Shown one piece after another: positions 2 to 21,700 of a stretch of DNA of 64,000 nucleotides (positions are counted from its first letter, which is position 1; each line of letters starts with the position of its first letter). The position numbers and the translations under genes were made by a program. The stretch comes from an uncultured Nitrospiraceae bacterium (lineage in GTDB: Bacteria; Nitrospirota; Thermodesulfovibrionia; Thermodesulfovibrionales; UBA6898). A model generated the notes under the pieces. The model was not told where the DNA came from and did no database searches. It worked only from the letters and a program-made list of their open reading frames with translations. The stretch spans positions 6,723 to 70,722 of the forward strand of contig CAYWRK010000012.1 in the NCBI GenBank assembly GCA_964461065.1. Reading direction: 5' to 3'.

Positions 2-2101
2 ACCATCAACGCGATCTTCAGGGCTGCGCATACCATTAAGGGATCCTCGCGCATGTTGAAGCTGACCGCCATAACCGATGTTGCTCACAAGCTGGAAGAT
101 GCCCTTGGGGCTTTGCGTGAAAAACGGATTATTCATACCCAGGAGCTTGCAGGCCTTTTGTTCAGGGGTGTTGACGCTGTATCCGCCATGATACAGAACG
201 TGTCTGCAGGAGAACAGATCACTCTGGACAATGTTTCCCTCTGCGAGTCACTTACTCAGGCGGCCGAGGGCGCAATCGCCCCTGGATCACCAGCAGCAGG
301 CATTGAGGCTCAGGAGAGAAATACCCCGTCTGTTTGCGCTGTTGCACCCACTACCCCAGCAGAGAGCGTTAAGCCGACTGCCCCTCAAAAGGCAAAGCCA
401 ACCGCCTCTGAGAGCATTCGGGTGAAATCCGAAAAGCTCGACGACCTGATACGGCTGATGGGCGAAGTCGTATCACATCAGAATAAGCTCAAGCAGCGCA
501 TCATAGATATCAGCGCTTTGGAGCGTGAAGCGAAGCGAACTCTGGACATCTGCTCCCGGGTCTGCGATGGTCCGTCTCTTATCAATGCCCGGTCTCTGCA
601 TCTGGGACTGAAACAGCTCCTGTCGGTGATGAGGCAGGACAAAACTCTGCAGGACATCCTTACAACTGAATTTCAGGAAAAGGCTCTTATGCTGAGGATG
701 GTACCCCTTTCTACGGCCTTCGACCCTCTGCACAGGCTGGTGCGGGACATTTCGAACTCTCTTGGCAAGGACGTGGACTTTGAGGTGGAAGGCGGCGGAA
801 TCGAGCTTGATAAAAAAATGGTCGAAAAATTGAGCGACCCTCTCGTGCATATGCTCAGAAATTCGATCGATCATGGGATTGAAGACCCGCAGGTTCGCCG
901 GGCAGCCGGTAAAGCACCAAGGGGAACGGTGCGGTTGTCTGCTGCTTATGACGCAGGAAACATCCTTATTGAACTATGCGACGACGGCTCAGGAATTTCG
1001 ACCACAAAAATAAAGGAAAAGGCTCTTTCAAAGAAGCTTTTTGATGAGGCCGCTCTCGACAGTATGCCGCAGGAGGCACTGCTCGACCTGATCTTCCTTC
1101 CCGGCTTCAGTACCAGCGGCATCATCACAGACATCTCGGGCAGGGGAGTTGGCATGGATGTGGTAAAAAGGAACATAGTCGAAGATCTGAAGGGAACGGT
1201 GCATATCAGCACCCAAGAGGGAGTTGGGAGCTCCTTCTTCATCAGACTTCCCATGTCTCTTGCAATCATGCGGATCCTGCTTATTTCCTGTCAGGGAATA
1301 GAGTTTGGCATCACCTCGCACTATGTGATTGAGATCATTAAAATAAAGGCAACCGAAATCATTGATGTAGTCGGCCGGAAGGCGCTGCGACTGCGTGAAG
1401 AGTTCATTCCGATTGCCGAAATGGACGGCGTTCTAAACATCGGGAACAACGGAATTAAAAAGCCGGAAACCCTGCTCATTCTGATTGTGCAGGTCGCTTC
1501 GGAGAAAATAGGCTTCATTGTCGATGCCATTTTAGACGAGGAGAACATGGTGATCAAGCCGCTGCCCGACCACCTGCAGAGAGTCCGGCTTGTTGCGGGA
1601 GTTACTATATCGGGGAAGAACGAAATCATCAACATCCTTAATGTGCCTGCGCTTATGGAGACTGCCAAGAATGCAGGCGTGGTTCGGCCGACAAGCCGTG
1701 AAGATGATGCTGCGGAGCAGGAGATCCATATCCTGGTCGTAGATGACTCCATCAATACACGGGAGATCGAGAAAAGCATCCTCGAGGCGTACGGTTACCG
1801 GGTGACCCTTGCAGGAGATGGTTTAGAGGCCCTTGAAAAAACAGAGCAGTCGAGATACGATCTGGTTATCACTGACGTGGAGATGCCGCGGCTTGATGGT
1901 TTTTCGCTCACCGAGCGACTGAGGGCAGATAATTCTTATAAGCACGTCCCTATCATTATTGTAACGTCGAGGGAAAAGGAAGAAGACAAGCGTCGCGGCA
2001 TCAGCGTTGGCGCAAATGCGTATATCATTAAAGGGTCATTTGATCAAAGCAACCTCGTTGACACGGTGCAGAACCTTATCGGGAAAGGAAAAAATATATG
2101 A
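2..2101 (+). CDS. cheA: CheA-type histidine kinase with C-terminal receiver domain (5' end cut by window edge)
   Basis: The frame is open from nt 2. TINAIFRAAHTIKGSSRMLKL is the HPt phospho-His motif. It is followed by a dimerisation region, HATPase (DHGIED, GRGVGMDVV), a CheW-like P5 region and REC (ILVVDDS...TDVEMPRLDG...AYIIKG). Confidence 0.9.
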   Translation, partial: TINAIFRAAHTIKGSSRMLKLTAITDVAHKLEDALGALREKRIIHTQELAGLLFRGVDAVSAMIQNVSAGEQITLDNVSLCESLTQAAEGAIAPGSPAAGIEAQERNTPSVCAVAPTTPAESVKPTAPQKAKPTASESIRVKSEKLDDLIRLMGEVVSHQNKLKQRIIDISALEREAKRTLDICSRVCDGPSLINARSLHLGLKQLLSVMRQDKTLQDILTTEFQEKALMLRMVPLSTAFDPLHRLVRDISNSLGKDVDFEVEGGGIELDKKMVEKLSDPLVHMLRNSIDHGIEDPQVRRAAGKAPRGTVRLSAAYDAGNILIELCDDGSGISTTKIKEKALSKKLFDEAALDSMPQEALLDLIFLPGFSTSGIITDISGRGVGMDVVKRNIVEDLKGTVHISTQEGVGSSFFIRLPMSLAIMRILLISCQGIEFGITSHYVIEIIKIKATEIIDVVGRKALRLREEFIPIAEMDGVLNIGNNGIKKPETLLILIVQVASEKIGFIVDAILDEENMVIKPLPDHLQRVRLVAGVTISGKNEIINILNVPALMETAKNAGVVRPTSREDDAAEQEIHILVVDDSINTREIEKSILEAYGYRVTLAGDGLEALEKTEQSRYDLVITDVEMPRLDGFSLTERLRADNSYKHVPIIIVTSREKEEDKRRGISVGANAYIIKGSFDQSNLVDTVQNLIGKGKNI

Positions 2102-3252
2102 AACCGAATACTGAAAATGTAACCATACTGGTGGCTGATGATGATCCGCTTGTGCGGGAGATGATTGCGATGATCCTGCAGGACGAGGGGTATTCTGTCG
2201 ACATGGCCGAAAATGGAGCTGAGGCTTTGAAAATATTCGGTTCCGGAGACGGTATCAGCCTCATTGTCTCGGACATGAACATGCCTGAGATGGATGGTCT
2301 GGGCCTGATCAAGGCCATCCGCAATACAGGACACGACGTGCCGATCATAATTCTGACCGGGAACAGTGAGGTTACAACCGCAATCCAGGCCATGAAAACA
2401 GGGGCCAGTGATTATATCCTTAAGGACGAAAATATCCAGGATACCATCGGCATATCAGTAGAAAAGGCGCTTGAAAAACACTTTCTCAAAAAGCAGAACC
2501 AGCAGCTTCTGGAGGAGCTCGCGCGCAGAAACGACAAACTCGAACATGAGAAGGCCCTTGCACAGAAGGTTCAGAAGAATATCCTGCCGCGGGATCTCCG
2601 GTTTCCCGGGTTCGAAGTGGAGTCGTTTTACCGGCCGTCAGACAAGATCGGCGGCGATTTTTTTGACGCCTGGGAGAACCGCGGCATAATACACTTTCTG
2701 ATCGGTGACGTGTCCGGCCACAGTACTTCATCAGCCTTGATCATGGCAGTGAGCAAGGGAATTCTCCAGTCGCTTGGCTATACGCTGAGTGATCCTCGGG
2801 AGATCGTCAGGACTGCAAACCGGATGATCTGCGATATTGTGAGTGACAGCGGCATGTTTCTGACACTGCTGTATGGCGTTTTCGACCGCGCTAAGGATGA
2901 ACTTCTCATTGTTTCGGCGGGCCATAATCCCGTCTTTCTCGTCAGGGGAGAGGATGTCACTCGAATTGACTCAACCGGATCAGTGCTTGGGTGGGATTCA
3001 GAAGACAGATGGGATGCGACTGTCTCAGTTTTTTCACCTGGCACAAGCCTCGTGCTGTATACCGATGGCCTTACAGAAGTGAAGAACCGTGCTGGTTTGG
3101 AATTCGGTGAAGAGGGTCTGGAATCCCTGCTGCGTGATGATCTTACCCCCGGAGCCACGATCAGTAAAATCGTACAGAATGTCGAGACGTTCTGCAGTAA
3201 TGAGTTTCCGGACGATCTGACCCTTTTCATCATAAAACGGATACCTATTTGA
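2098..3252 (+). CDS. Response-regulator receiver fused to PP2C/SpoIIE-type serine phosphatase (RsbU/HsbR-like)
   Basis: N-terminal REC (ILVADDD...SDMNMPEMDG). C-terminal PPM motifs GGDFFD, GDVSGHS and LYTDGLTE. ATGA overlap with the cheA stop. Confidence 0.9.
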   Translation: MKPNTENVTILVADDDPLVREMIAMILQDEGYSVDMAENGAEALKIFGSGDGISLIVSDMNMPEMDGLGLIKAIRNTGHDVPIIILTGNSEVTTAIQAMKTGASDYILKDENIQDTIGISVEKALEKHFLKKQNQQLLEELARRNDKLEHEKALAQKVQKNILPRDLRFPGFEVESFYRPSDKIGGDFFDAWENRGIIHFLIGDVSGHSTSSALIMAVSKGILQSLGYTLSDPREIVRTANRMICDIVSDSGMFLTLLYGVFDRAKDELLIVSAGHNPVFLVRGEDVTRIDSTGSVLGWDSEDRWDATVSVFSPGTSLVLYTDGLTEVKNRAGLEFGEEGLESLLRDDLTPGATISKIVQNVETFCSNEFPDDLTLFIIKRIPI

Positions 3253-3680
3253 TGGATCAGAGAATCATTTCTCTGAAATTTAAGCCCGTCTTCGAGAATG
3301 TTGACTCGGCTCGAATTGCCGTACATAATGCTTGCAGAGATCGGTATCTGCAGCCGGGATCAGAGTCGCTCATAGGCGAGCTCCTGCTGGCCGTCACAGA
3401 GGCGATGAATAATGCAGTAGAGCATTCAGGGGCTGAAGAGGTTGAAATCGAGGTAATTGCCGGATCGCAGAGCCTTGTTTTCCGCATGATGACGGCGGGA
3501 GAGAGATTTGACCCTACGGCTGGTGTTGCTTTTCCTGATCTCGATGATTCTGAAGAACTGCCTGAGGGCGGATTCGGCAGAGCGCTGATTGCGGAAATGG
3601 TGGACTCCGTAACATATGAATATCGTGAAGGCAGAAATATTCTGACACTCGAAAAAAACATGCAAACAAAGGAGGATTAG
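3252..3680 (+). CDS. Anti-sigma-type serine protein kinase (RsbW/SpoIIAB-like HATPase)
   Basis: About 140 aa with N-box LAVTEAMNNAVEHS and G-box PEGGFGRALI. The ATG overlaps the upstream TGA. A TTG at 3249 is also possible. Confidence 0.85.
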   Translation: MDQRIISLKFKPVFENVDSARIAVHNACRDRYLQPGSESLIGELLLAVTEAMNNAVEHSGAEEVEIEVIAGSQSLVFRMMTAGERFDPTAGVAFPDLDDSEELPEGGFGRALIAEMVDSVTYEYREGRNILTLEKNMQTKED

Positions 3681-3684
3681 ACAG

Positions 3685-4047
3685 ATGGAGATTAGTATCA
3701 GCATGGAGGGGGATTTCGTAGTAGCTGACGTAGCTGGTGATCTTGTAGCGAGTACAGCAGAGGAACTCAAGGCCCAGCTGGGAAAGCTGATCGAGAAGAA
3801 CTTTCTTTTCGTGATTCTCGAACTGAGCAAGATAAGCTTCATGGACAGTTCTGGCCTTGGTGCCTGCATGGCTGTTCATAAAGCATTCAATGAGAAAAAA
3901 GGGAGTCTTGTCTGCACAAAGCCGAGCGAGACCGTTGCCAAGGTCTTTCGTGTTACCCGCGCAGATCAGAAGCTGAACATGGCAAATACGCGCCTTGATG
4001 CCATTAAATTCCTGAAGAGTGCAGCGTTAAGCGGGAGGCAGTCATGA
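3685..4047 (+). CDS. STAS-domain anti-sigma-factor antagonist (RsbV/SpoIIAA-like)
   Basis: 120 aa with the conserved phosphorylatable motif FMDSSGLG. AAGGAGG lies 9 nt upstream of the ATG. Confidence 0.9.
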   Translation: MEISISMEGDFVVADVAGDLVASTAEELKAQLGKLIEKNFLFVILELSKISFMDSSGLGACMAVHKAFNEKKGSLVCTKPSETVAKVFRVTRADQKLNMANTRLDAIKFLKSAALSGRQS

Positions 4048-5795
4048 AGATGAACGAATCGACCAAGCTTGGCGAGATTCTGATAGAAAAGAAGATCATT
4101 ACTACTGCTCAGCTTGAGGAGGCTCAGAAGAAGATGCAGGCCCATTCTCTTCCTCTCGGTGAGATGCTGGTAAGGCTAAAATTCGTTTCTGAACATGTCA
4201 TGCTCGACACCCTCAGCAAGCATTTGGGTGTAGATTTTCTGAATATTGCAGAAAACGATTATCAAATCGTGGATCGTTCGTTATCAAGAGTTCTGCCTCT
4301 GGAAATATGCGAGAAACAGAAAGTTCTGCCGATCTATCAGATTATTGATGAAGATCTGCGAGAACTGACCCTGGCGATGGCCAATCCCTTTGATGAAGAT
4401 GTCATTAACGAGGTCGCATCCATAACGGAATGCCGCGTTAACCCGGTACTGGCAACCATCGCATCGATCGAAGGAGGCATTGCCAAGCTTTATGCGATCA
4501 AGACCGATGTCAAGATCGAGAAGTTCTCGATGCAGAAGGGTGATCCAACATCGCTTGTAAACGGGATGCTTCAGACTGCGGTGAGGCTTGGGGCAAGTGA
4601 TATCCATATTGATCCTCATCCGAAAGAGGTCTTTGTGCGGATGAGGGTTGACGGAATTCTGGAGGTTGTTTCTGTCTATCCGACGGAAATGCATTCATCC
4701 GTTTCCACAAGGATTAAGGTAATGGCAAGCGCTGCAAACTCGAACATGAGGATTGAAGAGCGTAGACTCCCGCAGGATGGGGCCATAGCCGGCACATTTG
4801 ACGGGCACCTTGTTGACTGCCGCGTATCTACGCTCCCATCGATATTTGGCGAGAAGATCGTCATGAGGATCTTCGACAAAGACAAGGCTGCCTATATTGG
4901 CCGCATCAGAGACCTCAAGATGTCTCCCCGGATGGAGTTGAAATACCGGCGCTGCGTAAGACATCCGAGCGGGATCAATATTGTTACGGGTCCGACCGGC
5001 AGCGGGAAGACGACAACATTGCACGCCGTGATCAATGAGATCAGCTCGGTTGGCATCAGCGTGGTTACCGTAGAGGATCCCGTCGAATACCAGGCAGGGG
5101 GATATATTAATCAGAGCTCCCTGATGCCCGCTGCCGGGTACAACTACACCCGGGCCCTGCGGGCAATCATGAGGCAAGATCCTGATGTCATTCTGATCGG
5201 TGAAGTAAGGGATCGTGAGACAGCCGAGATCGCAACGCAGGCAGCCTTGACAGGCCATCGCGTCTTCACAACCCTCCATACTGACAATGCAGCAAGCTCG
5301 TTTGCGCGACTGATCGATATCGGTGTCGAGCACTTTCTTGTCTCCTCCACAACGGTCTCATCCCTGAACCAGCGACTTATCCGCAAGGTCTGCACGAACT
5401 GCGCTGAAGAACATGTCCCGACAAAGGTTGAGCTGGCAGATATCGGCATTGACAGCCAGGTTATCAGCGAGATCTTGAATAATCCGCAGCAGTTCAGCAT
5501 GCGAAGGGGAAAGGGCTGTGATATGTGCCGCAAAACCGGTTATCGGGGAAGACAGGGTGTCTATGAACTAATAGCCGTCACCCCGGATATACGCGAGCTC
5601 ATTCATCGGAATCAATCAACTGATGTGATTGCTACAACGGCTAGGGAAAAAGACAATGTGAATATGATCTTCGAGGAGGGGTTGCGGCTTTTCCTGACAG
5701 GGGTTACCACGCTGGGCGAAATGCAGCACCTGCCTCGCGGTGATTATAAGATGAAATCGGTTGAAGAAATCCTGAAGGATTCTGAACTTTCATGA
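4044..5795 (+). CDS. GspE/PilB-family secretion or pilus-assembly ATPase
   Basis: Walker A GPTGSGKTTT, Walker B DPDVILIGEVRD, His box TGHRVFTTLHT and tetracysteine CTNC...CDMC. The N-terminus has T2SSE_N/MshEN-like tandem LGE repeats. ATGA overlap with the STAS gene. Confidence 0.9.
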   Translation: MKMNESTKLGEILIEKKIITTAQLEEAQKKMQAHSLPLGEMLVRLKFVSEHVMLDTLSKHLGVDFLNIAENDYQIVDRSLSRVLPLEICEKQKVLPIYQIIDEDLRELTLAMANPFDEDVINEVASITECRVNPVLATIASIEGGIAKLYAIKTDVKIEKFSMQKGDPTSLVNGMLQTAVRLGASDIHIDPHPKEVFVRMRVDGILEVVSVYPTEMHSSVSTRIKVMASAANSNMRIEERRLPQDGAIAGTFDGHLVDCRVSTLPSIFGEKIVMRIFDKDKAAYIGRIRDLKMSPRMELKYRRCVRHPSGINIVTGPTGSGKTTTLHAVINEISSVGISVVTVEDPVEYQAGGYINQSSLMPAAGYNYTRALRAIMRQDPDVILIGEVRDRETAEIATQAALTGHRVFTTLHTDNAASSFARLIDIGVEHFLVSSTTVSSLNQRLIRKVCTNCAEEHVPTKVELADIGIDSQVISEILNNPQQFSMRRGKGCDMCRKTGYRGRQGVYELIAVTPDIRELIHRNQSTDVIATTAREKDNVNMIFEEGLRLFLTGVTTLGEMQHLPRGDYKMKSVEEILKDSELS

Positions 5796-5831
5796 GCCAG
5801 GCTTCTTCAGCCCTTTAATGGCAGTAATGAT

Positions 5832-7502
5832 ATGACACATCCCAGTAGTGCGGTTCAGGAAAAGCTGAAGGGATTACGGAAGATTTTTTCCGATCAGCTG
5901 CCCGAAAAAATCCGGGAGATTGAAGAAGCTCTCGAAGGTCTGCTCAGGGACGAGTGGGATAAGACCCGGGCTGAAACTGTTGCACGCCTGATTCATACGA
6001 TGGCCGGCACTGCCGGCACCTTTGGCTTCTCTGCAATACGGTCCGCGGCGAAAAGTATTGAGGCACTGCTTCGAACAGCCACAAAGGACAGTGCTCTTCC
6101 GGCAGCCAATCTGCTGGCACAGATGAGAGAACAGTTAGAAACACTCAAGGGCGCCTGCGCAGATGCTGCAGTGACAATGGTCACTCCGGAGGTGATCGGG
6201 CAGGCACCCTTGCCTGTCTGCTCAGACAACGACACTGTTTTTGTTGTCGATAACGACCCCCTGTATACTGATAGCCTTGCTCTACAACTTCGCTGTTATG
6301 GATACAAGGTAGCCGCTTTCAGCACATTCGTTGATCTCATGGCGGCTTTGAGTGCTTCAACACCGCTGATTATTGTCATGGACCTGTCAATTCTCGAAGG
6401 TCAGCATGCCGGCGTAGACGCAGTTGCTGAGCTTCAGCAGAGATGCAGAACGGCAGTCCCCATTGTCTTCCTCTCTGACCGCTCTGATTTTAACGGTCGA
6501 CTGGAGGCAGCGCGCTCAGGCGGAGACGCCTATTTCGTAAAGCCAGTGAATGTTGGACGGCTGGTGGACAGGCTTGATGTTATGACTGCTCGCAGGCCCA
6601 GCACTCCCTTTCGCATCCTGATCGTAGACGACGACCCGCTCTTGGCGGACTTTCATGCAACCGTCTTGCAGCAGGCCGGTATGAGTACCGCAGTGGTCAC
6701 TGATCCTGAGCGGGCGCTGGAGAGCATGATCGACTTCAGGCCAGAGCTCATTTTAATGGATGTGTATATGCCGGGCTGCAGCGGCATGGAACTGGCCAAG
6801 TTGATACGTCAGGATGAGACGTACATTGATATCCCTATAGTATTCCTGTCCTCTGAAACTGACATAGACCGGCAGCTTGCTGCAATGGGCCGTGGAGGCG
6901 ACGATTTTCTAACCAAGCCGATACAGCCCGCCCGCCTGATTACGTCGGTTACGCTTCGTGCTGACCGGTACCGCACTCTGCGGTCCTTTATGCTGTATGA
7001 TGGGTTAACAGGACTTTTAAACCACACGAAGACAAAGGAGCAGTTAGACATCGAAGTCTCTCGCACCACGCGTCAAAAGAGTGAACTCTCCTTTGCCCTG
7101 ATCGATATAGACCTTTTTAAGTCTGTAAACGATACCTATGGCCATCCGGTCGGTGACCAGGTCCTCAAAAGTCTTTCCCGCCTGCTGAAGCAGAGGCTGA
7201 GAACAACGGATATTGTGGGTCGTTTCGGGGGAGAAGAGTTCGCAGTCATTCTCACTGATACCGACGGGCAGACGGCGCACAGGATATTGAACGAACTGAG
7301 GGAGGATTTCTCAAAGATCTGCCACACTCATATGGGTGTCACCTTTAATGTTACTTTTAGCTGCGGTATCGCCAACCCGGAATCGGGGATGACCGGCACT
7401 GCCCTGATCAACGAAGCGGACAAGGCCCTATACGAGGCCAAGCGGGCAGGACGAAACTGCGTGGTCTACGCGAGTGCAGGCGAAGCAGGTTCAGCTTGTT
7501 AG
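5832..7502 (+). CDS. HPt - REC - REC - GGDEF diguanylate cyclase
   Basis: HPt-like RLIHTMAGTAGTFG and two receiver domains (VFVVDND.., ILIVDDD...LMDVYMPGCSG). The GGDEF domain has an intact GGEEF A-site and an RTTD I-site 5 residues upstream. Confidence 0.9.
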   Translation: MTHPSSAVQEKLKGLRKIFSDQLPEKIREIEEALEGLLRDEWDKTRAETVARLIHTMAGTAGTFGFSAIRSAAKSIEALLRTATKDSALPAANLLAQMREQLETLKGACADAAVTMVTPEVIGQAPLPVCSDNDTVFVVDNDPLYTDSLALQLRCYGYKVAAFSTFVDLMAALSASTPLIIVMDLSILEGQHAGVDAVAELQQRCRTAVPIVFLSDRSDFNGRLEAARSGGDAYFVKPVNVGRLVDRLDVMTARRPSTPFRILIVDDDPLLADFHATVLQQAGMSTAVVTDPERALESMIDFRPELILMDVYMPGCSGMELAKLIRQDETYIDIPIVFLSSETDIDRQLAAMGRGGDDFLTKPIQPARLITSVTLRADRYRTLRSFMLYDGLTGLLNHTKTKEQLDIEVSRTTRQKSELSFALIDIDLFKSVNDTYGHPVGDQVLKSLSRLLKQRLRTTDIVGRFGGEEFAVILTDTDGQTAHRILNELREDFSKICHTHMGVTFNVTFSCGIANPESGMTGTALINEADKALYEAKRAGRNCVVYASAGEAGSAC

Positions 7503-8629: not shown

Positions 8630-10198
8630 ATGTTTGACAGAAAACTGAAAATATATCAACAGATCATCGAACAGATGGCAGATGGGGTCTGTCTTATAAC
8701 ACTCGATGGCAAGATTGCGTATTGGAACAAAGGGGCAGAGGTCATAACCGGCTGGTCTGCTCTCGAACTGTTAGGGAAATCCTGTCATGATGAGGTGATC
8801 AGGTTTGAAGATGCAGAGGGGAACGCCCTCTGTGACCTTATCTCTTCCGTTGCTGCGACGGATGAGCCGCGCCGCATGAATATTTTTCTGAGGATCAGAA
8901 ATGGCAGCAGGGCCCTTATGGAAGGCACGATTTCTCGAATGTTCAGGGAGGGAAAGCCGGAGCGCAGTATTATCACCTTCAGGGACATTTCGCAGTTTGC
9001 AGCGCTCAGACCATTTCAGCTTAAGACTCAGAAACTCGATCGCCTGATCCCAATCTGCGGATGGTGCAAAAAGATTCGGCATGATGATCAAACGTGGGAG
9101 CAGCTTGAGGCCTATCTCACGGAGCAGGGCTTCGGTGATTTCACGCACTCTATCTGTCCTGTCTGCGCAGAGAAGATATTCTCGAAACGCATTTATCTTG
9201 AGAGCTACCAGAATATCTGCAAGGCGATCAGCACCAGTCTTTCGGTTGAGGAGGTGCTGAATCTCATTGTTACCCATGTTGTAAAGGTTATGAACATGAA
9301 GGCAAGTCTCGTGAGGCTTATTAACAGAGAAAAAAACCAACTCGAAATTGCTGCCCATTGCGGTTTGAGCGAAAGCTATGTAAATAAAGGCCCTGTTGAG
9401 TATGACCGGTCCATTGACGATGCCCTCGCAGGAAAGCCTGTCTCGATCTACGACATTACAGAAGACCGGTCATCAAAATACCGGCAGGAGGCGGAGAAGG
9501 AAGGCATTCGTACGATTCTTTCGATACCGCTCAGGTTCAAGGATGAAGTAATCGGCGTACTCAGAATGTACACTGCAGAACCTCTGGATTATTCTGAGGA
9601 AGACCTGAAGTTTCTTGCTGCAATTGCCGAGCAGGCTGCTATTGCGATCATGAATGCCCGCCATTTTGAAAAAAGCGTCTCTCGCGAGCGCGAATATCTC
9701 GATATCTTCAAAGCCGTAACGAAAACGATCAGTTCAACGCTTAATGTGAAAGAGGTCCTGTTCACGGTTGTCAGGATGATCCCTGCGGTCATGCGGCTGA
9801 AGGCAGCGACCATACGACTCCTTGACGACTCTGGCCAGAAACTGGTACTGGAGGCGTCTCACGGCCTGTCAGAGCAATATCTGAGAAGGGGGCCTGTTGA
9901 TACTGAGGAGAACATCCGGGAGGCATTAAACGAAAAGCCTGTTGCGATCTATGATGTTATGACTGACCAGCGGATTACCTATAAGAAAGAGACAGAGGCA
10001 GAGGGGATTAAGAGCGTCCTTGCACTTCCCATCATTGCCAAAGGAAAGGTGATCGGTGTACTCAGACTGCTTACCAATGTGCACAGGACCTTCAGTCAGG
10101 ACGAGATCGATTTTACAATGGCCCTTGCAGAGCAGTGTGGCATTGCTATCGAAAACGCACGGATGTATGAAAAACTCCATACTGCAAATATGCAGTAA
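8630..10198 (+). CDS. PAS - Cys/His-rich module - GAF - GAF sensory protein with no recognisable output domain
   Basis: N-terminal PAS (DGKIAYWNKGAEVITGW). CGWCKKIRHDD...HSICPVC motif. Two GAF-like repeats, each ending ...IGVLR(M/L)... Confidence 0.8.
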   Translation: MFDRKLKIYQQIIEQMADGVCLITLDGKIAYWNKGAEVITGWSALELLGKSCHDEVIRFEDAEGNALCDLISSVAATDEPRRMNIFLRIRNGSRALMEGTISRMFREGKPERSIITFRDISQFAALRPFQLKTQKLDRLIPICGWCKKIRHDDQTWEQLEAYLTEQGFGDFTHSICPVCAEKIFSKRIYLESYQNICKAISTSLSVEEVLNLIVTHVVKVMNMKASLVRLINREKNQLEIAAHCGLSESYVNKGPVEYDRSIDDALAGKPVSIYDITEDRSSKYRQEAEKEGIRTILSIPLRFKDEVIGVLRMYTAEPLDYSEEDLKFLAAIAEQAAIAIMNARHFEKSVSREREYLDIFKAVTKTISSTLNVKEVLFTVVRMIPAVMRLKAATIRLLDDSGQKLVLEASHGLSEQYLRRGPVDTEENIREALNEKPVAIYDVMTDQRITYKKETEAEGIKSVLALPIIAKGKVIGVLRLLTNVHRTFSQDEIDFTMALAEQCGIAIENARMYEKLHTANMQ

Positions 10199-10228
10199 CG
10201 TTGTCGCTAATCTCTCAGATTCAAAAAA

Positions 10229-12352
10229 CTACACCTTAACCTTCCAGACAGTACCTTCCTTCTTGTCTTCAAGTACCACCCCTTTATCTTCAAGCTCCCT
10301 GCGGATTGCATCAGCTGCAGCCCAATCCTTGCTGCCCCGGACTTTCTGCCGCTCCTCAATCTTTGATGCAATGAACTCCTCAGTCACATTCGGGCACTTG
10401 AACCGCATCAGCGCTTTGTTCCATTCTTCAGGTATGCGGCTGAAAATATTGAGAATACCTCCGGCCTCTTTAAGGAGTCCTTCGGTCCTTTTTACAAGAG
10501 CTGCTGCCCTTGAACCAGAGGGTTTGCCATCGAGATATTTATTCAGCATACGGATCAGTTCGAAGATATTTCCGATTGCAAGTGCAGTATTAAAGTCATC
10601 GTCCATCGCCTCTGTAAATCTATCCTTGAATTTATCCAACATCTCCTCGAATGCCTTCTCTTCTGAACCTGCCTTTTCCTTTGCATTATCCTGTACAAGA
10701 AAATCACGCACACGGAGAGCCGTGGTGTAGTAACGGTCAATGGATACCTCGGCCTCTTTCAGTTGTTCATCCGAAAACTCGATAGGGCTGCGGTAGTGGG
10801 TTGAAAGCAGAAAGAACCTCACCGGTTCCGCATCAAACTTTGAAAGAATTTCCTTAATGGTAAAGAAGTTGCCGAGAGACTTTGACATCTTCTCCTTATC
10901 TACGGTGATGAAGCCATTATGCACCCAGTATTTTGCAAAGGGTTTGCCGGTAAATGCCTCTGACTGGGCAATCTCATTTTCGTGATGCGGGAATGTCAGA
11001 TCAGCCCCTCCGCCGTGGATATCGAACGTATTGCCAAGATGCTTTCGTGACATGGCTGAACACTCGATATGCCAGCCTGGCCTGCCTGAGCCCCAGGGGC
11101 TGTCCCAGGAAGGCTCTCCTTCTTTTGATGCCTTCCATAGGGCGAAATCCATAGGATTTCGCTTGCGCTCATTAACATCAACCCGAGCACCTGCAATCAT
11201 GTCGTCAAGGTCACGTTTTGAAAGCTTTCCATAATCACTAAACGTATCGATCTGAAAATAGACATCTCCACCAACAGCATAGGCGTACCCTTTGTCCACA
11301 AGGCCCCTGGTAATGTCGATGATCTCCTGAATATGCTCGGTTGCCTTTGGCTCAATATCAGCCCTGTCCACACCGAGTTGATCCATGTCCTGATAATATT
11401 CAGCGATATATTTTTCTGCCACCTCGTTCCAGGCAATGCCCTCCTGTTTCGCCCTGTTGATAATCTTATCGTCGATATCCGTGAAATTCTTCACAAACGT
11501 AACATGGTATCCCCTGAACGCAAGATACCGGCGCATGATATCAAAAACGATGGAACTCCGCGCATGACCAATATGGCAATGGTCATAAACGGTTATACCA
11601 CAAACATACATTTTTACCTGTCCCGGCGCTACAGGAACAAAATCCTCTTTCTTGCCGCTCAGGGTATTATATAGCCTCATTCTGCCTCCTTTTTGCACAG
11701 CACTTTCAGGAGCCTCAATTTTTCTGGCAATCTCCGAGATACGCGCCTCAAGCTCCTTAATCTTTTCGTTCGTCGGGTCCGGGAAATAGTCCATCACCTC
11801 GACAAGCCCGTCTTCAGTCGTCATCCTTGTGATCTTCTTTCTTGTAATTCTGCCCGGTACTCCTACACATATGGCACTGTCAGGCACAGGCTTCAGAATC
11901 ACGGAGTTGGCGCCGATTACAGCGTTATTGCCGATTGTTATCGCGCCCAGTATCTTGGCTCCTGCGCCAATAGTCACATTATTGCCAAGTGTCGGATGAC
12001 GCTTGCCCTTTTCCTTGCCTGTGCCGCCAAGGGTCACTCCCTGGTAAAGAAGGCAGTCTTCTCCGATCTCTGAGGTTTCGCCTATTACGACACCCATGCC
12101 ATGGTCTATAAAAAACCCCATGCCTATCTTTGCTGCCGGGTGGATCTCTATCCCGGTGAGCATTCGCGCAGCATGAGAAAGAAGTCTGGGGAGGACTGGG
12201 ATGCCGGCGTTCCAGAGAATATGGTTAATCCTATGGATAACAATAGCATGGAATCCGGGATAGGCAACGATGACCTCGAGAGCGTTTCGCGCCGCAGGAT
12301 CTCTCTCGAAAACTGCCCTATAGTCCTGCTTTATTTCCCTCCAGAAGCCCAT
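10229..12352 (-). CDS. cysS: Serine O-acetyltransferase (CysE) fused in frame to cysteinyl-tRNA synthetase (CysS)
   Basis: Residues 1-175 are hexapeptide-repeat CysE (IHPAAKIGMGFFIDHGMGVVIGE). From M225 the protein is class I CysRS (MYVCGITVYDHCHIGHARS; KMSKSLGN). No stop codon separates the two parts. Confidence 0.85.
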   Translation of the reverse strand: MGFWREIKQDYRAVFERDPAARNALEVIVAYPGFHAIVIHRINHILWNAGIPVLPRLLSHAARMLTGIEIHPAAKIGMGFFIDHGMGVVIGETSEIGEDCLLYQGVTLGGTGKEKGKRHPTLGNNVTIGAGAKILGAITIGNNAVIGANSVILKPVPDSAICVGVPGRITRKKITRMTTEDGLVEVMDYFPDPTNEKIKELEARISEIARKIEAPESAVQKGGRMRLYNTLSGKKEDFVPVAPGQVKMYVCGITVYDHCHIGHARSSIVFDIMRRYLAFRGYHVTFVKNFTDIDDKIINRAKQEGIAWNEVAEKYIAEYYQDMDQLGVDRADIEPKATEHIQEIIDITRGLVDKGYAYAVGGDVYFQIDTFSDYGKLSKRDLDDMIAGARVDVNERKRNPMDFALWKASKEGEPSWDSPWGSGRPGWHIECSAMSRKHLGNTFDIHGGGADLTFPHHENEIAQSEAFTGKPFAKYWVHNGFITVDKEKMSKSLGNFFTIKEILSKFDAEPVRFFLLSTHYRSPIEFSDEQLKEAEVSIDRYYTTALRVRDFLVQDNAKEKAGSEEKAFEEMLDKFKDRFTEAMDDDFNTALAIGNIFELIRMLNKYLDGKPSGSRAAALVKRTEGLLKEAGGILNIFSRIPEEWNKALMRFKCPNVTEEFIASKIEERQKVRGSKDWAAADAIRRELEDKGVVLEDKKEGTVWKVKV

Positions 12353-12389
12353 GTTTAGAGCCTATTATACATAAAAAGCAGAACCAACT

Positions 12390-12803
12390 GTGCTATTATT
12401 CTTCATGCAGATCAGCCCACAATCAGACCTTCAGCAGATGATCGCAGATTATATGGAGAACGGGTTTTTAGACAACATCATTGATATGTTCAGGCATGAC
12501 AGCTCGCTTTATGATCTTATTGGCACATTGATACAAGATGAACGAGTCAGAGTAAGAATCGGCATTACCGCACTGATGGAAGAACTGAAGAGGCTTGATC
12601 CTGCCAATATCATTTGCGCCAAGAAAAACCTTCTGCCGCTTCTTGCTCACACCGATGCGGTTGTGCGGGGTGATGCAGCAAACCTTATCGGCATTATCGG
12701 CGACAGGGAATCGCTTCCTTTTCTTGAACCTTGCCTGCTGGATACGCATGAGGGCGTCAGGATCATTGCCCAGGAAGCTATTGCCCAGATGCGAACTCAA
12801 TAG
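12390..12803 (+). CDS. HEAT-repeat protein
   Basis: Repeated helical DxxVRxxAAxxLGxIG-like units (DAVVRGDAANLIGIIGD, HEGVRIIAQEAI). The start is uncertain: GTG at 12390 or ATG at 12405. Confidence 0.55.
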   Translation: MLLFFMQISPQSDLQQMIADYMENGFLDNIIDMFRHDSSLYDLIGTLIQDERVRVRIGITALMEELKRLDPANIICAKKNLLPLLAHTDAVVRGDAANLIGIIGDRESLPFLEPCLLDTHEGVRIIAQEAIAQMRTQ

Positions 12804-12827
12804 AAATTTCTTTGTTGCGGGGTAATT

Positions 12828-13406
12828 ATGAAACGTATAGCAAATTTTCTCTTTGAAGCCGGCATGCTCAAGCGCACACCAAGGACCGGTTTCCAGTTCC
12901 TGGGATCCGGCTCCGAGTCAGTTGCGGAACATATATTCAGGACTGCGTACATAGGCTTTGCTCTCGCCCATCTTGCAAAGGATGTGGACAATGATAAGCT
13001 GCTCAAGATGTGCCTGTTTCACGATCTACCTGAGGCCAGGACAGGGGATCTGAATTATGTGAACAAGAAATACGTGAAGGCTGACGAGGAAAAAGCTGTC
13101 AATGATCTTGCAGACACGCTTCCTTTTGGTGATGAGATCAGGGACTTGATATTCGAGTTCATGAAGGGCGAGAGCCTGGAAGCACAATTAGCCTATGACG
13201 CTGATCAGCTCGAAATGATAGTGGCCCTCAAGGAACATAAAGATCTCGGCAATACGTATGCAGATGAATGGCTCAACTTTGCTCTCAAAAGACTGAAAAC
13301 GGATATTGCCCGGGAACTTGCCAATACCATCCTCGAAACAGATTCGTCCCTCTGGTGGTTTTCGGATAAGAGCGACTGGTGGGTGAAGGGGAAGAAAGAA
13401 ACATAA
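12828..13406 (+). CDS. HD-domain phosphohydrolase (YfbR-like 5'-deoxynucleotidase family)
   Basis: ESVAEH...LFHDLPEARTGDL...D metal-binding signature. Confidence 0.8.
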   Translation: MKRIANFLFEAGMLKRTPRTGFQFLGSGSESVAEHIFRTAYIGFALAHLAKDVDNDKLLKMCLFHDLPEARTGDLNYVNKKYVKADEEKAVNDLADTLPFGDEIRDLIFEFMKGESLEAQLAYDADQLEMIVALKEHKDLGNTYADEWLNFALKRLKTDIARELANTILETDSSLWWFSDKSDWWVKGKKET

Positions 13407-13424
13407 GAACTTTTTGTCATATAC

Positions 13425-13904
13425 TTATCCCTTTCCCTCCTTCTCAAGCAGGCAGACGACATGCGCAGCAATACCTTCCCCCCGGCCGATAAATCCCATG
13501 CCCTCGTTAGTCTTTGCCTTGATATTGATCTGTCCTGCCGGGATACCGGTCAGGGATAATGCAGCCTTCATCCTTTCGATAAAGGGCGCGAGCTTCGGCT
13601 TTTCAGCAATAATAGTTGAGTCGATCCATGCAACAGCGTACCCACTCATTCTTGCCAGCTCAACGATAGTCTTCAGCAGTTCGATACTCACAGCATCTTT
13701 CCATTTTGGATCCGTGTCAGGGAAATGGGTCCCTATATCTCCGAGGCCAAGTGCACCGATGATTGCATCGGTAATAGCATGACAGAGCACATCAGCATCA
13801 GAATGGCCGACCAAACCCTTTTCATGAGGTATTTCGACTCCGCCGACGATAAGCTTCCTGCCTTCCGCAAAGCGGTGAGAGTCATATCCCGTGCCAATCC
13901 TCAT
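13425..13904 (-). CDS. ispF: 2-C-methyl-D-erythritol 2,4-cyclodiphosphate synthase
   Basis: MRIGTGYDSHRF...GHSDADV motifs and about 159 aa. 4-nt overlap with ispD. Confidence 0.95.
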   Translation of the reverse strand: MRIGTGYDSHRFAEGRKLIVGGVEIPHEKGLVGHSDADVLCHAITDAIIGALGLGDIGTHFPDTDPKWKDAVSIELLKTIVELARMSGYAVAWIDSTIIAEKPKLAPFIERMKAALSLTGIPAGQINIKAKTNEGMGFIGRGEGIAAHVVCLLEKEGKG

Positions 13905-14599
13905 TGGTGCTCAGTCCGCATTTTGAGAAATGCTTCAGCGATCACGAGGTCTTCTGGTGTTGTAATCTTGATATTCGTATATTCCCCTATTATCACTCGT
14001 ATACGGCCACCATTTTTCTCAACGAGAGCAGCATCATCAGTTGCATAAAAAGATTCCTTCATTGCCCTTTCATAGGCAGCAAGGAGCGGTTGATAGAAAA
14101 AAATCTGGGGGGTCTGTATCGCAATGAGCGTATCCCGATTCAATGTCTTTCGTATCAATGCTCCTTCGACCTCTTTTATCGTATCTTTTGGTGGCACACC
14201 GATTACGACACCGTCATATCCTGATAGTGCCTTCAGAGCTCTTCTTGCGGTCTTGGGTTCAAGGAAAGGTCTTGCCCCATCATGGATAAGGACAATTGAG
14301 CCTTCGTCTTTTATGAAATGAAGTCCGTTAAAAACAGAATCCTGCCGTTCCTTTCCTCCCGGCACTATGCGCTTCACCTTCGTGATCTTATAGTGTTTAA
14401 AGAGTTCTGTACCTGCCTGCATGTCAGTCTCCTTAAGCACAGGGATGATCTCAGAGATTTCAGACATCTTCTCAAGGGTTTCGAGGGCCCATATCAAAAC
14501 CGGCTTGTTGCCCAAGGTTTCAAAGGGCTTGTTTCTGTTCTCCCCGAACCTTCTTCCTAGTCCTGCAGAAGGAACAATAGCCACTACGTTATGCTGCAC
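13901..14599 (-). CDS. ispD: 2-C-methyl-D-erythritol 4-phosphate cytidylyltransferase
   Basis: N-terminal AIVPSAGLGRRFG motif. Operonic with ispF. Confidence 0.95.
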   Translation of the reverse strand: MQHNVVAIVPSAGLGRRFGENRNKPFETLGNKPVLIWALETLEKMSEISEIIPVLKETDMQAGTELFKHYKITKVKRIVPGGKERQDSVFNGLHFIKDEGSIVLIHDGARPFLEPKTARRALKALSGYDGVVIGVPPKDTIKEVEGALIRKTLNRDTLIAIQTPQIFFYQPLLAAYERAMKESFYATDDAALVEKNGGRIRVIIGEYTNIKITTPEDLVIAEAFLKMRTEHQ

Positions 14600-14635
14600 G
14601 GATTCACCTATTACCCTATTCTCTATTTTTCTGTC

Positions 14636-16105
14636 TTAAGAGGATTTGATCGTCACGTAGTACTTTTTCCCGCCCCTGTTGACGAAAAGGAGGGCTGCAT
14701 CTCCCGGTTTCACGCTGGACACAGCCTTATTGTAGTCGCTCAGTCCTTCGATACGCTTTCTGTCAATCTCCTGAATTACATCTCCTTTGCGAATGCCTGC
14801 CTCTTCAGCAGGACTTCCTGCTTCAACCCGAACAACAACAACACCTTTCTCATCCTTATGGAGGCCAAGCTGCCGGGCAATCTCCCTGGTGAGATCCATG
14901 GCGGTCAGTCCTGAGAGCCCTTCTAACACTGAATCTTCAGGTGCGTTTCCCGGAGTTGTCTCAACAATATCTTTTGGCAGTTCTATAATCACTACCTTAA
15001 CGGCATATTCCTTGCCACCCCGCAGGATAGTGATTGGTATTTCGCTGCCGACCTTGCTCTGGGCGACCATATTCCGGAGAGTCCCCACATCAGATATCTT
15101 TTTGCCGTTATATTCAAGGATGATGTCGCCCCTTTTCATGCCAGATTTTTCAGCAGGGCTTCCTTTGGCAACATCTCCTACAAGTGCACCCTTCTCGCTC
15201 TTTAAGCCGAACTTCTGTGAAAGCTCAGGCGTCAGTTCCTGGATCGTCACACCGAGCCAACCCCGCGTAACCTTCCCCTTATCAACAAGCTGGTTCATCA
15301 CAAGACGGGTCATGTTGCTCGGCACGGCAAATCCAATGCCCTGGTACCCGCCGGATCGAGAAAAAATTGCCGTATTGACACCGATGAGTTCACCCTTGAT
15401 ATTCACAAGCGGGCCGCCTGAATTTCCAGGGTTGATGGCCGCATCCGTCTGGATAAAGTCCTCATAATCGGCTATCCCGACATTGGCCCTTCCCACCGCA
15501 CTTATGATTCCCATAGTAACCGTATGGCTCAGACCATAGGGATTTCCGATTGCAAGCACGAATTCACCCACCTGCAGTTTGTCCGAGTCTCCCCATTGCG
15601 CAGCCCTGAGATTGTCTGCCTCGATCTTCACGATAGCGATGTCCGTCTTCGTGTCCGCGCCGATAATCCTTGCCTTGAATGAACGCTTGTCAAAAAGCGT
15701 TACCCTGATCTCGTCTGCCTGCTCAACAACATGATTATTGGTGATAATATAACCGTCTGTGCTTACGATAACCCCTGATCCCAGGCTCTGCTCTTTCCAT
15801 TTTTTTGGCATCTTAAAATTGCGGAAGGGGTTCAAAAGGTCAAAAAAGGGATCTTCAGCCGATGGACCTGCCTCTCTCTTCATAACCTTTGTCGTAGATA
15901 TGTTTACGACAGAAGGTGAAATAGAACCCGCAATCTCTGAAAATGCCTTGCTCGTGTCGATGATCTGACGCGGCACATTCGGCGTGGTAAAGGAAGCGTA
16001 TCCCTTGTGAGTGCCAGTTACTTTCTCAAGGAAATAGAATGAAACTCCACCGATAAGAATGCCGATGAGCAGGAAAAGAACTATGACGCCTATTTTATTC
16101 TTCAT
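14636..16105 (-). CDS. htrA: Periplasmic serine endoprotease DegP/HtrA with two PDZ domains
   Basis: Signal anchor. Catalytic triad contexts TNNHVV, DIAIVK and GNSGGPL. Two PDZ-like repeats. Confidence 0.95.
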   Translation of the reverse strand: MKNKIGVIVLFLLIGILIGGVSFYFLEKVTGTHKGYASFTTPNVPRQIIDTSKAFSEIAGSISPSVVNISTTKVMKREAGPSAEDPFFDLLNPFRNFKMPKKWKEQSLGSGVIVSTDGYIITNNHVVEQADEIRVTLFDKRSFKARIIGADTKTDIAIVKIEADNLRAAQWGDSDKLQVGEFVLAIGNPYGLSHTVTMGIISAVGRANVGIADYEDFIQTDAAINPGNSGGPLVNIKGELIGVNTAIFSRSGGYQGIGFAVPSNMTRLVMNQLVDKGKVTRGWLGVTIQELTPELSQKFGLKSEKGALVGDVAKGSPAEKSGMKRGDIILEYNGKKISDVGTLRNMVAQSKVGSEIPITILRGGKEYAVKVVIIELPKDIVETTPGNAPEDSVLEGLSGLTAMDLTREIARQLGLHKDEKGVVVVRVEAGSPAEEAGIRKGDVIQEIDRKRIEGLSDYNKAVSSVKPGDAALLFVNRGGKKYYVTIKSS

Positions 16106-16292
16106 GGTTCATTAATTATAATAGTCTGCATGCATGATGTAAAGTGTCCATTCTTGACAAAAACCCTATTCTAATGCTAACTTTTAAAGCTCATAATACT
16201 TGGGAATCCAGGGGTTTGGATTACTTTTTGTCTTCTTTTCTGCCTGTTTCAGTCCCAAAATATATCCCTGTAGTTTACATTGGAGGTCTCTT

Positions 16293-17432: not shown

Positions 17433-17446
17433 GAGAGAAAACTCTA

Positions 17447-20888
<3,442 letters not shown>

Positions 20889-21700
20889 TTTCCGGTCTTG
20901 TTAATTTCGTATTTCCTTCTACATGTCCATCATGCAGCAAACCCACAGACAGCCTTGCGCATGCGCCATTCTGCGACCAATGCTGGGACAGCATAGAGCA
21001 ATATTCCGGACCGTCATGCCGGATCTGCGGCGTACACCTTGTTTCAGTGCATGCTGACCGATGTCAGACTTGTCTCGAATATCCTCCAGCATACACAAGG
21101 GCCCACGCGTTCACCCATTATGAAGGCCTCATTGCTTCCGCAATTCATCACTTCAAGTTTCTGGGTATCCGAAGACTTTCAAAGCCGCTTGCTGAGTTAT
21201 TGCTCTTTTATGATACTAAGGACATGGATGCAGTAGTCCCTGTGCCGCTCAGTCCGAGTGGTCTGAAAAGCAGAGGCTTCAACCAGGCTGTTCTCCTTGC
21301 CAGCCACGTGGCAAAGCAGAAGAAGCTTCCGTTGCTCATGGATGAGTTGAAAAAGATTGTGGATACGCCCCCGCAGGTAGGCCTCTCTGCAAAAGAGCGT
21401 GCTGTCAATGTGAAGAAGGCATTTTCCTGCAGAGGAACGGTTATGGGCATGAATCTGGTGCTGATCGACGATGTCATGACGACCGGCGCTACGGTCAACG
21501 CCTGCTCCAGGGAGCTCATCAGGGCGGGGGCGAAAAGCGTATCAGTGCTCACCCTTGCAAGGGCAGGGATGATATAAAGCCGTGAGGAGTCACGCACTTC
21601 AGCAGGTGCCTTAGCTTGAGCTTCTGGACAGAGTGGCAAAGGCTCTGAACCGCAAACTCGTTATTTCACTTCAACGGCAATAAATGCTTGCCAAGGGTGT

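Follow-up and report, generated by a model that had tools for sequence, protein, structure and literature searches.

A conserved STAS-ATPase gene pair suggests that a chemosensory partner switch may act on a PilB/GspE-type motor ATPase

The 64,000-nucleotide (nt) stretch analysed here (the window; positions 6,723 to 70,722 of contig CAYWRK010000012.1, assembly GCA_964461065.1, from an uncultured Nitrospiraceae bacterium) opens with a six-gene operon (nt 2-7502) that encodes, in this order, a CheA-class hybrid kinase, a receiver (REC)-PP2C phosphatase, an RsbW-like kinase, a STAS protein, a motor ATPase of the PilB/GspE family and a GGDEF diguanylate cyclase. Partner switches by serine phosphorylation normally control sigma factors; sigma-less ones are common, and their targets are mostly unidentified. 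By a modest lean, we favour the view that this operon is a signal-transduction system ending in the ATPase, in which the phosphorylation state of the STAS protein would gate the motor directly. What is observed is a conserved set of genes with intact catalytic and acceptor motifs, an ATPase under strong constraint, and no sigma factor or platform gene found in cis. Partner switches with non-sigma clients and non-flagellar chemosensory outputs are already known; what these loci point to as new is the wiring to a PilB/GspE-type ATPase. No STAS or partner-switch protein linked to an ATPase of this family is described in the full-text literature searched, most subscription journals lying outside it.

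All six open reading frames (ORFs) lie on the + strand and are tightly packed, with the coordinates, gene order and junctions given by the initial annotation, which had been made from the sequence alone, and every domain predicted there is recovered by Pfam above curated cut-offs. The CheA-REC hybrid histidine kinase (2..2101) shows matches to Hpt (P1), H-kinase_dim, HATPase_c, CheW (P5-like) and Response_reg; it runs off the 5' end of the window with about 38 codons cut, so that its HTIKGS HPt motif stands at residue 10 of the readable frame. Its stop (2101) overlaps by 4 nt the start (2098) of the REC-PP2C (SpoIIE-family) serine phosphatase response regulator (2098..3252; Response_reg 102.8 bits, SpoIIE 142 bits), whose stop (3252) in turn overlaps the start of the next gene by 1 nt (ATG, 3252) or 4 nt (TTG, 3249). 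The latter encodes a presumed STAS serine kinase of the RsbW/SpoIIAB type (3252..3680, alternatively from 3249; HATPase_c_2 62.9 bits), and a gap of 4 nt separates its stop (3680) from the start (3685) of a single-domain STAS protein of the anti-sigma-antagonist family (3685..4047; Pfam STAS 55.6 bits), which also exceeds the cut-off of the NCBIfam model ant_ant_sig (TIGR00377; 63.1 against 53.45 bits). The STAS stop (4047) overlaps the start (4044) of the PilB/GspE/MshE-family (T2SSE) hexameric motor ATPase by 4 nt (4044..5795; T2SSE 349.6 bits, MshEN 48.3 bits), and a gap of 36 nt lies between the ATPase stop (5795) and the start (5832) of the HPt-REC-REC-GGDEF diguanylate cyclase response regulator (5832..7502; Hpt 48.8 bits, Response_reg 140.2 bits over two stretches, GGDEF 146.1 bits).

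Comparison with two close relatives shows purifying selection on all six genes, with ratios of nonsynonymous to synonymous substitution (dN/dS) of 0.02-0.18. The ATPase is the most strongly constrained gene of the operon (0.017-0.027), the STAS gene lies at 0.08-0.10, and the other genes span 0.08-0.18, including CheA-REC (0.12-0.18) and the cyclase (0.146). Promoter and terminator scans gave signals within shuffle expectation. It is the recurrence in about 25 independent loci, together with the purifying selection on the six genes, that places the arrangement beyond chance.

The ATPase belongs to the T2SSE superfamily but falls below the cut-offs of the NCBIfam equivalogs for both GspE (TIGR02533; 431.5 against 630.25 bits) and PilB (TIGR02538; 430.2 against 675.65 bits). 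Its homologues form a block of at least 51% identity (P0001-P0067), after which identity drops sharply to about 42% and below for ordinary PilB and GspE proteins; the named sources of the block are Nitrospirae/Thermodesulfovibrionales, Syntrophales, Desulfobacterales and Desulfobulbaceae. A neighbour-joining (NJ) tree of 160 sequences, a simple distance tree without support values, places these proteins as a monophyletic group on a long stem, separate from the groups into which the PGAP-named GspE and PilB proteins fall, and the window ATPase would thus represent a distinct clade of the superfamily. Its architecture comprises an N-terminal domain of the MshEN fold, an N2 domain and a catalytic C-terminal domain with a tetracysteine site. 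Among 64 clade sequences there is little or no variation in the Walker A and B motifs, the Asp and His boxes, the four Cys and the Arg residues, and this invariance, together with the strongest constraint in the operon, indicates that the protein is a working motor enzyme.

Clade loci were gathered by exact look-up of database homologues, by a reference-genome scan and by a metagenome scan with a clade-specific alignment of the N-domain, and their neighbourhoods were scored by searching the window proteins and hidden Markov models against six-frame ORFs. A profile search of the representatives with the N-domain returned few single-stretch proteins above 200 bits, being swamped by multi-tandem GSPII-repeat proteins. 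In 21 of 22 clade loci (ATPase identity 52-97%), the gene immediately upstream of the ATPase, in the same orientation, encodes a STAS protein. Of the 20 loci measured, 15 have a 4-nt overlap between the STAS stop and the ATPase start, and in most of these the overlapping start is the only candidate. The metagenome scan also supplied 69 control loci with ordinary PilB/GspE-like ATPases, none of which has a STAS, RsbW or PP2C neighbour. The reference-genome scan, run with the full ATPase, holds at least two clade loci among the matches listed, the other 78 loci serving as controls; a STAS neighbour is found in 0 of the 54 non-Planctomycetota controls and in 24 of the 78, all of them Planctomycetota.

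The pairing was also recovered when the search was reversed. With the STAS protein as query, many matches lie on contigs equal in length to those of the ATPase matches; the four most divergent homologues (42-50% identity) that lie on long contigs without a matching ATPase hit were inspected (L169-L172), and all four have REC-PP2C and RsbW genes upstream of STAS and an MshEN+T2SSE ATPase after it. The ATPase of L169 is a clade member, 60% identical to that of the window, and is followed in tandem by a second ATPase of 633 amino acids (aa; 9141-11042). The other three are of a 641-aa type: L170 (7449-9374, with an extra N-terminal MshEN-like repeat, ~31% identical to the window ATPase), L171 (7418-9343, ~30%) and L172 (7738-9663, ~32%). 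This second lineage (633-641 aa, ~30-33% identical to the window ATPase, with the extra repeat) is served in L170-L172 by the same REC-PP2C/RsbW/STAS switch. Since three of the four ATPases found in this way come from the other lineage, the switch is the constant element: it stays with one kind of partner across at least two ATPase lineages. The proposal of the initial annotation that a sigma-less, CheA-fed switch embeds the ATPase as its output thus gains support from conserved linkage in both directions of search.

Conserved linkage could also reflect mere co-location, with the switch acting on a distal sigma factor, an anti-sigma factor of the FlgM kind or a cyclase encoded elsewhere, and the ATPase co-transcribed as one member of a surface-behaviour regulon. 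Precedents exist: HsbA of Pseudomonas aeruginosa acts on the distal FlgM (PMC5085249), and many STAS outputs have distal or unidentified targets (PMC8256260). Several observations make this explanation quite improbable. The linkage outlasts swaps of the input, of which there are five kinds, and of the ATPase lineage; it persists as a bare STAS-ATPase pair and recurs independently in Planctomycetota; and ordinary PilB/GspE loci outside that phylum have no STAS neighbours. Moreover, no cognate sigma factor was found in the operon, the scanned ORFs of the 64-kb window, the 10 kb upstream in the close relative L001 or the ~25 related loci, although a distal one is conceivable.

Deep branches of the clade single out the STAS protein within the switch. 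L093 and L168 carry the STAS-ATPase pair alone, without a cis kinase or phosphatase, which suggests STAS rather than RsbW as the ATPase-proximal partner; a fused REC-PAS-SpoIIE-HATPase_c_2 protein is seen only near L168. The 24 Planctomycetota loci (L012, L013, L017-L019, L023-L025, L030-L032, L035, L036, L047, L049, L052, L057, L060, L061, L065, L069, L075, L079 and L084) show the same pairing, with a STAS gene that abuts a PilB-type ATPase about 350 nt upstream of the ATPase match and still has the Ser of the DSxGL motif. Behind the ATPase comes PilC in all 24, and PilM is present in 20; the operon of L012 (Pfam STAS match of 68 bits) continues with PilN, PilO and a prepilin. Neither RsbW nor PP2C was detected next to the pair in any of these loci. 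The count of 4-nt couplings in Planctomycetota is an upper bound, as the start-codon picker favoured the -4 position when several starts were possible. This STAS-PilB-PilC(-PilM-PilN-PilO) operon is not described in the literature searched. The Planctomycetota STAS-linked ATPases form a lineage of their own in the NJ tree (a distance tree without support values), which does not support their placement as sister of the window clade; the two look like separate lineages. Recurrence in Planctomycetota and the bare pairs of L093 and L168 together favour STAS over the kinase as the contact of the ATPase.

The switch proteins themselves carry most of the expected residues. Read in the translation, the metal-binding motifs of the phosphatase are GGDFFD, GDVSGH, YTDG and DDLT, with the receiver Asp within LIVSDMNMP, and the single-domain STAS protein has its DSSGL acceptor in the motif FMDSSGLG (Ser55), which is invariant among orthologues. 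These readings agree with the GGDFFD and DSSGL motifs first noted. The kinase had been credited with both N-box and G-box. The N-box (EAMNNAVEH) and the G2 box (PEGGFG) are indeed present and conserved, but the G1-box Asp is replaced by Thr in the window and by Thr, Ser or Asn in orthologues across the clade (residues ~85-95). A weak alignment to Bacillus subtilis RsbW (6m36; E = 0.07) puts the substituted residue opposite the Asp of ADEGDSFD. This Asp is the adenine contact in GHKL ATPases, and the nucleotide pocket of the kinase therefore looks atypical for a STAS kinase.

An RsbW-like gene adjoins in 18 clade loci, and the REC-PP2C gene is present in 14, several other contigs ending too early to tell. 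Two loci fuse the RsbW-like kinase to a second STAS domain (STAS::HATPase_c_2, ~252 aa; L166, 7850-8608, and L167, 7849-8613). As a separate gene, a second STAS paralogue with the motif FIDSTGLN stands between phosphatase and kinase in one subclade (L002, 8838-9185; L088, 6684-7052; L089, 8817-9185), to which the fused form of L166 and L167 corresponds, and L172 has two STAS genes in tandem ahead of the ATPase.

These properties of the kinase bear on an arrangement in which the RsbW-like protein would be an 'anti-ATPase' that sequesters or inhibits the motor, as RsbW does sigma-B, until dephosphorylated STAS captures it, the STAS protein never contacting the ATPase. This is the textbook design of a partner switch, and it agrees with the adjacency of RsbW-like genes in 18 clade loci, with a degenerate G1 box that could mark a shift from catalysis to binding, and with the STAS::RsbW fusions, which show that the two proteins pair. 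We regard it as unlikely, however, since the STAS-ATPase pair is kept without a cis RsbW in L093 and L168 and no adjacent RsbW is detected in any of the 24 Planctomycetota operons, since the translational coupling to the ATPase belongs to STAS and not to RsbW, and since the conserved phosphoacceptor Ser and the intact PP2C argue for an active kinase.

The ATPase's N-terminal domain could respond to cyclic di-GMP (c-di-GMP) instead. Two tandem 24-residue MshEN-like motifs (residues 8-31 and 37-60; 4065..4223), separated by the 5-residue spacer QAHSL, are identified by the MshEN domain model, by NF053729 (a curated model of the MshE-related c-di-GMP motif; 52.1 bits against a cut-off of 38), by conservation tables and by alignments in which a stretch of 150 residues at the N-terminus matches the N-domains of PilB (3jc8/5tsg), PilF (6f8l) and MshE (5htl). 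In the MshEN structure, c-di-GMP is bound mostly through hydrophobic Leu clusters and Gly backbone amides; the only polar side-chain contacts come from Gln, and the second Gly is required for helix turns (PMC5013675). The window motifs follow the patterns KLG..K..L..Q..M and PLG..K..M..L..H, which gives KLGKLQM and PLGKMLH at the signature positions where the canonical sequence has RLGGLLQ twice. As suspected from the start, the Arg, Gly and Gln positions are thus substituted (K/K/M and P/K/H for R/G/Q): the window ATPase lacks both signature Arg, both turn Gly and both Gln and is the most degenerate of the clade, while the L-G and most Leu positions are retained. In the clade as a whole, 56 of 64 members have Pro in place of the Arg of motif 2, and its Gln is usually replaced by His. 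The GSPII-A domain of PilF keeps its fold without binding and shows that small deviations can abolish c-di-GMP recognition (PMC12002112); on this precedent and the signature substitutions, canonical high-affinity binding by the window ATPase is doubtful. A separate idea, that a degenerate MshEN makes room for STAS docking, is not supported, because the Planctomycetota STAS-linked PilBs are near-canonical (L012: RLGGLLQ and LLGGMLQ) and the deep-branching clade member L165 has a canonical motif 1 (RLGGLLQ, followed by PLGGVLH). Degeneracy of MshEN is thus no prerequisite for STAS linkage.

The cyclase gene, too, is less constant than the switch. Its product has an intact GGEEF active site and, as first noted, an RTTD I-site, five residues before GGEEF. 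GGDEF regulators are missing from most clade loci and recur in four different arrangements: HPt-REC-REC-GGDEF downstream of the ATPase (only the window, L001 and L005), REC-GGDEF upstream (L004), HPt-REC-GGDEF between CheA and phosphatase (L169) and REC-GGDEF downstream of a 641-type ATPase (L170). Such absence and variability fit a recurrent accessory, providing a parallel output, rather than a core component. The module is therefore wired between CheA, ATPase and cyclase, as the initial annotation put it, in the lineage of the window but not in most of the clade. Whether c-di-GMP is nonetheless the real regulator, with the product of the cyclase binding the MshEN domain as in MshE and PilB and the switch tuning the cyclase as HsbA or SiaC does, can be judged on the same data. 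The passing NF053729 score, the kept L-G and Leu positions for a mainly hydrophobic mode of binding (PMC5013675), the four independent arrangements of GGDEF regulators and the precedent for STAS-to-cyclase control all speak for it. We give it only a slim chance, since the GGDEF gene is missing from most clade loci, the window MshEN is the most degenerate of the clade although its lineage carries the cyclase, the PilF GSPII-A domain loses binding through small deviations (PMC12002112), and the cyclase is here receiver-regulated and needs no STAS.

An exact look-up of the REC-PP2C protein of the window gave no match by which the contig could be extended. The region beyond the 5' edge of the window was approached through L001, a Nitrospirae metagenome-assembled contig (GCA_016214855.1) whose ATPase is 97% identical to that of the window and which has the same genes downstream of it. 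Upstream of its 737-aa CheA-REC orthologue lie CheW, CheW, a methyl-accepting chemotaxis protein (MCP), CheB and CheR-TPR, the MCP, CheW, CheB and CheR genes for which a check upstream had been recommended, and beyond these unrelated redox genes; the 10 kb upstream contain no sigma factor and no pilus or type II secretion apparatus. The Wsp system (WspA-F, WspR), of the alternative cellular function (ACF) class, comprises an MCP, two CheW, a CheR with TPR, CheB, a CheA-REC hybrid and a response-regulator output. The composition of L001 is Wsp-like in just this sense (CheA-REC, CheR-TPR, two CheW, CheB and MCP, and no CheY-to-flagellar output), with a response-regulator output and, in the lineage of the window, a GGDEF response regulator; it differs in gene order and in its first output regulator, a REC-PP2C that would act on a partner switch where Wsp has a REC-GGDEF. 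The likeness to Wsp and the ACF class is one of gene composition. The same Che set occurs in L002, L166, L167 and L172, and CheA with MCP, CheB and CheR is seen in 12 clade loci. L006 attaches a different Che class (CheD; CheA without REC) to RsbW-STAS-ATPase, and L004 has only REC-GGDEF upstream of the module. In all, five kinds of input surround a constant core: Wsp-like Che cluster, CheD-type Che cluster, dCache hybrid histidine kinase, plain histidine kinase and REC-GGDEF. A set of TusA, FlpD and FAD-ferredoxin oxidoreductase (HdrA-like) genes flanks the module upstream in L001 (1-1016) and downstream in L167 (10978-13624). The ATPases of L001 and L167 share 97% and 64% identity, respectively, with that of the window, and the recurrence may be coincidence or a conserved neighbourhood.

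The position of the ATPase behind such arrays also bears on the direction of signalling. In the reverse direction, the ATPase would be the sensor; STAS would read its nucleotide state or its load, as set for instance by pilus activity on a surface, and feed this into the switch and the c-di-GMP branch. PilB of Myxococcus xanthus is reported to be a signalling intermediary upstream of the exopolysaccharide (EPS) pathway (PMC5544727), and an ATPase without a cis platform would suit this role. It is nevertheless highly improbable, as no conserved gene follows the ATPase, which lies behind a full sensory array with adaptation enzymes, where an output is usually found, and its catalytic machinery is under extreme constraint.

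The mechanism that we favour, in which STAS gates the motor, would run as follows. A Wsp-like array, evident from gene content (MCP, two CheW, CheB and CheR-TPR upstream of the window edge), would sense a signal and set CheA autophosphorylation; CheA~P would phosphorylate the REC-PP2C receiver and thereby alter phosphatase activity; and the phosphatase and the RsbW-like kinase would together set the phosphorylation of STAS Ser55, as their conserved catalytic and acceptor motifs suggest. In the key step, one phospho-form of STAS would bind the ATPase and gate either the activity of the hexamer or its attachment to a pilus or secretion platform whose genes lie elsewhere in the genome. The signal would thus be converted post-translationally to motor output, most likely type IV pilus extension. 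As a side branch in this lineage, the CheA receiver could relay phosphate to the HPt domain of HPt-REC-REC-GGDEF (His-Asp-His-Asp), giving a parallel c-di-GMP output.

Several points weigh against this mechanism. L165, the deepest-branching member of the clade, has no STAS gene nearby. Homologues of PilC (the platform) or PilM occur in none of 19 clade loci, so that the ATPase has no linked platform (PilC/GspF) to indicate what it powers. Phosphotransfer from CheA to REC-PP2C is assumed from operon logic, and the phosphorylation cycle is not assured, because the kinase lacks the adenine-contacting G1 Asp. Neighbouring, translationally coupled genes may simply be co-expressed without their products binding each other, and the sequence fits the ATPase as output or as input alike.

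Known systems provide precedents for parts of this scheme. In the closest in logic, the HptB-HsbR-HsbA-HsbD/FlgM system of P. aeruginosa, HsbA~P binds the cyclase HsbD and dephosphorylated HsbA binds FlgM (PMC5085249). There, as is proposed here, a His-Asp phosphorelay controls a REC-linked PP2C that sets the phospho-state of a STAS protein (Ser56 in Hsb, Ser55 here), STAS acts as an output with non-sigma partners, and the system extends to a diguanylate cyclase and to pilus or motility behaviour (PMC5085249). The analogy with Hsb made at the outset therefore holds in logic and not in membership. The input of Hsb consists of hybrid sensor kinases and a free Hpt, whereas here it is a CheA-class array and the only HPt domains of the operon are the CheA P1 and the one at the N-terminus of the GGDEF protein; phosphatase and kinase are separate here, whereas HsbR fuses REC, PP2C and kinase in one protein; HsbD is receiver-less and activated by STAS~P, whereas this cyclase has its own receivers and is missing in most loci; and the conserved partner, a T2SSE ATPase, has no counterpart in Hsb. 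In composition, the Che cluster is closer to Wsp.

The Hmp system of Nostoc punctiforme (HmpU/HmpW/HmpV) is likewise a sigma-less PP2C/kinase/STAS switch beside a chemotaxis-like system, required for type IV pilus-driven motility, with dephosphorylated STAS as the output and an unidentified target (PMC8256260, PMC6495340). To our knowledge, no linked or targeted ATPase gene is reported for Hmp, and its phosphatase is not described as REC-fused; the loci described here, in contrast, point to a concrete candidate target class, the PilB-type ATPase. SiaABCD of P. aeruginosa, in which SiaC acts on the cyclase SiaD (PMC9239204), and BtrU/BtrW/BtrV of Bordetella, which controls type III secretion (PMC8256260), also combine a PP2C, a HATPase-type kinase and a STAS-like switch with a non-sigma output, but neither has a chemosensory input or a T2SSE ATPase partner. 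Direct STAS outputs thus have precedent in the binding of HsbD by HsbA~P, in SiaC acting on SiaD and in HmpV-controlled pilus-driven motility (PMC5085249, PMC9239204, PMC8256260, PMC6495340). From the side of the motor, the window ATPase shares with MshE, PilB and PilF the family, the domain order and the N-terminal MshEN/GSPII four-helix module with two 24-residue motifs and a 5-residue spacer (PMC5013675); it differs in its substituted signature residues, its scores below the equivalog cut-offs, its lack of platform, pilin or secretin in cis and its attached STAS gene.

The wider window places the ATPase in a genome with pilus genes. Among its larger ORFs, a Pfam sweep found no sigma factor, T2SSF/PilC or secretin, in agreement with phmmer searches with PilC, PilM and secretin queries; together with the upstream region of L001, this bears out the early remark that none is adjacent. 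However, about 28 kb downstream of the module lies a cluster of type IV pilus minor-pilin and tip-protein genes (33885-44868), comprising a 2021-aa protein with a PilY1 beta-propeller match (33885-39950), a GspH/FimT-like prepilin (39832-40578), PilV-like (40484-40996) and PilW-like (40993-42204) prepilins, a PilX-like ORF (42208-42894) and a further GspH-like prepilin (44359-44868). The GspH/FimT-, PilV- and PilW-like prepilins carry G(F/V/L)(T/S)L(T/I/V)E leader motifs. Judged from this cluster, the organism makes pili, and the ATPase, first described as an orphan, is one only with respect to its immediate neighbours. Within the cluster lies a gene for an AbiEii toxin (42975-43646, minus strand), and the window also holds two genes associated with DNA uptake, a ComF-like gene (double zinc ribbon and phosphoribosyltransferase; 20858-21577) and dprA (51119-52204). 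Nothing is conserved downstream of the ATPase across clade loci. In L088, and in this locus only, the module is directly followed (10194-18297) by an MSHA-like cluster with PilM-like, PilO, secretin and AAA_22 MshM/ExeA-like genes and a second, ordinary MshEN-T2SSE ATPase.

Other neighbours were noted in passing. Just past the operon, and divergent from ribF, a gene for a PAS-GAF-GAF protein (8630-10198; Pfam call from the 522-aa L001 orthologue) encodes Cys-rich CGWCKK...CPVC motifs between PAS and the first GAF. It is followed on the minus strand by a 707-aa ORF (10229-12352), an apparent fusion of CysE (serine acetyltransferase, with hexapeptide repeats) and CysS (cysteinyl-tRNA synthetase), whose 707-aa L001 orthologue gives SATase_N/Hexapep and tRNA-synt_1e matches. 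Directly downstream of the ATPase of L002, on the opposite strand, lies a diversity-generating-retroelement-like region (12235-21746; RVT_1 reverse transcriptase and bAvd) that also holds large unannotated and tape-measure-like genes.

T2SSE-type ATPases drive type IV pili, type II secretion and the uptake of DNA, and the regulators known to us comprise c-di-GMP, adaptors of the PilZ/FimX type and polar targeting factors. A partner switch acting on such a motor would be a new type of input, fast, reversible and independent of transcription. To c-di-GMP synthesis, the output known for non-flagellar, Wsp-like arrays, the module adds a phosphatase/kinase/STAS relay, and the conserved STAS-ATPase pairing offers a concrete candidate client class for orphan STAS outputs, which makes the binding partner of HmpV-like STAS proteins directly testable. 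More tentatively, and as a possibility that we would not yet rate at even chances, STAS proteins may be general phosphorylation-gated direct regulators of PilB/GspE/MshE-type ATPases in at least three ATPase lineages (the 580-aa clade of Nitrospirota and Desulfobacterota, the 641-aa type and the Planctomycetota pilus operons) and several phyla, captured by chemosensory arrays in the clade of the window, with PilB as the target of HmpV. If true, a pilus or secretion motor would be under adaptive control of the chemotaxis kind, with no transcription step involved. The hosts are uncultured anaerobes of sediments and groundwater, where pili are important in attachment and DNA uptake and perhaps in electron transfer.

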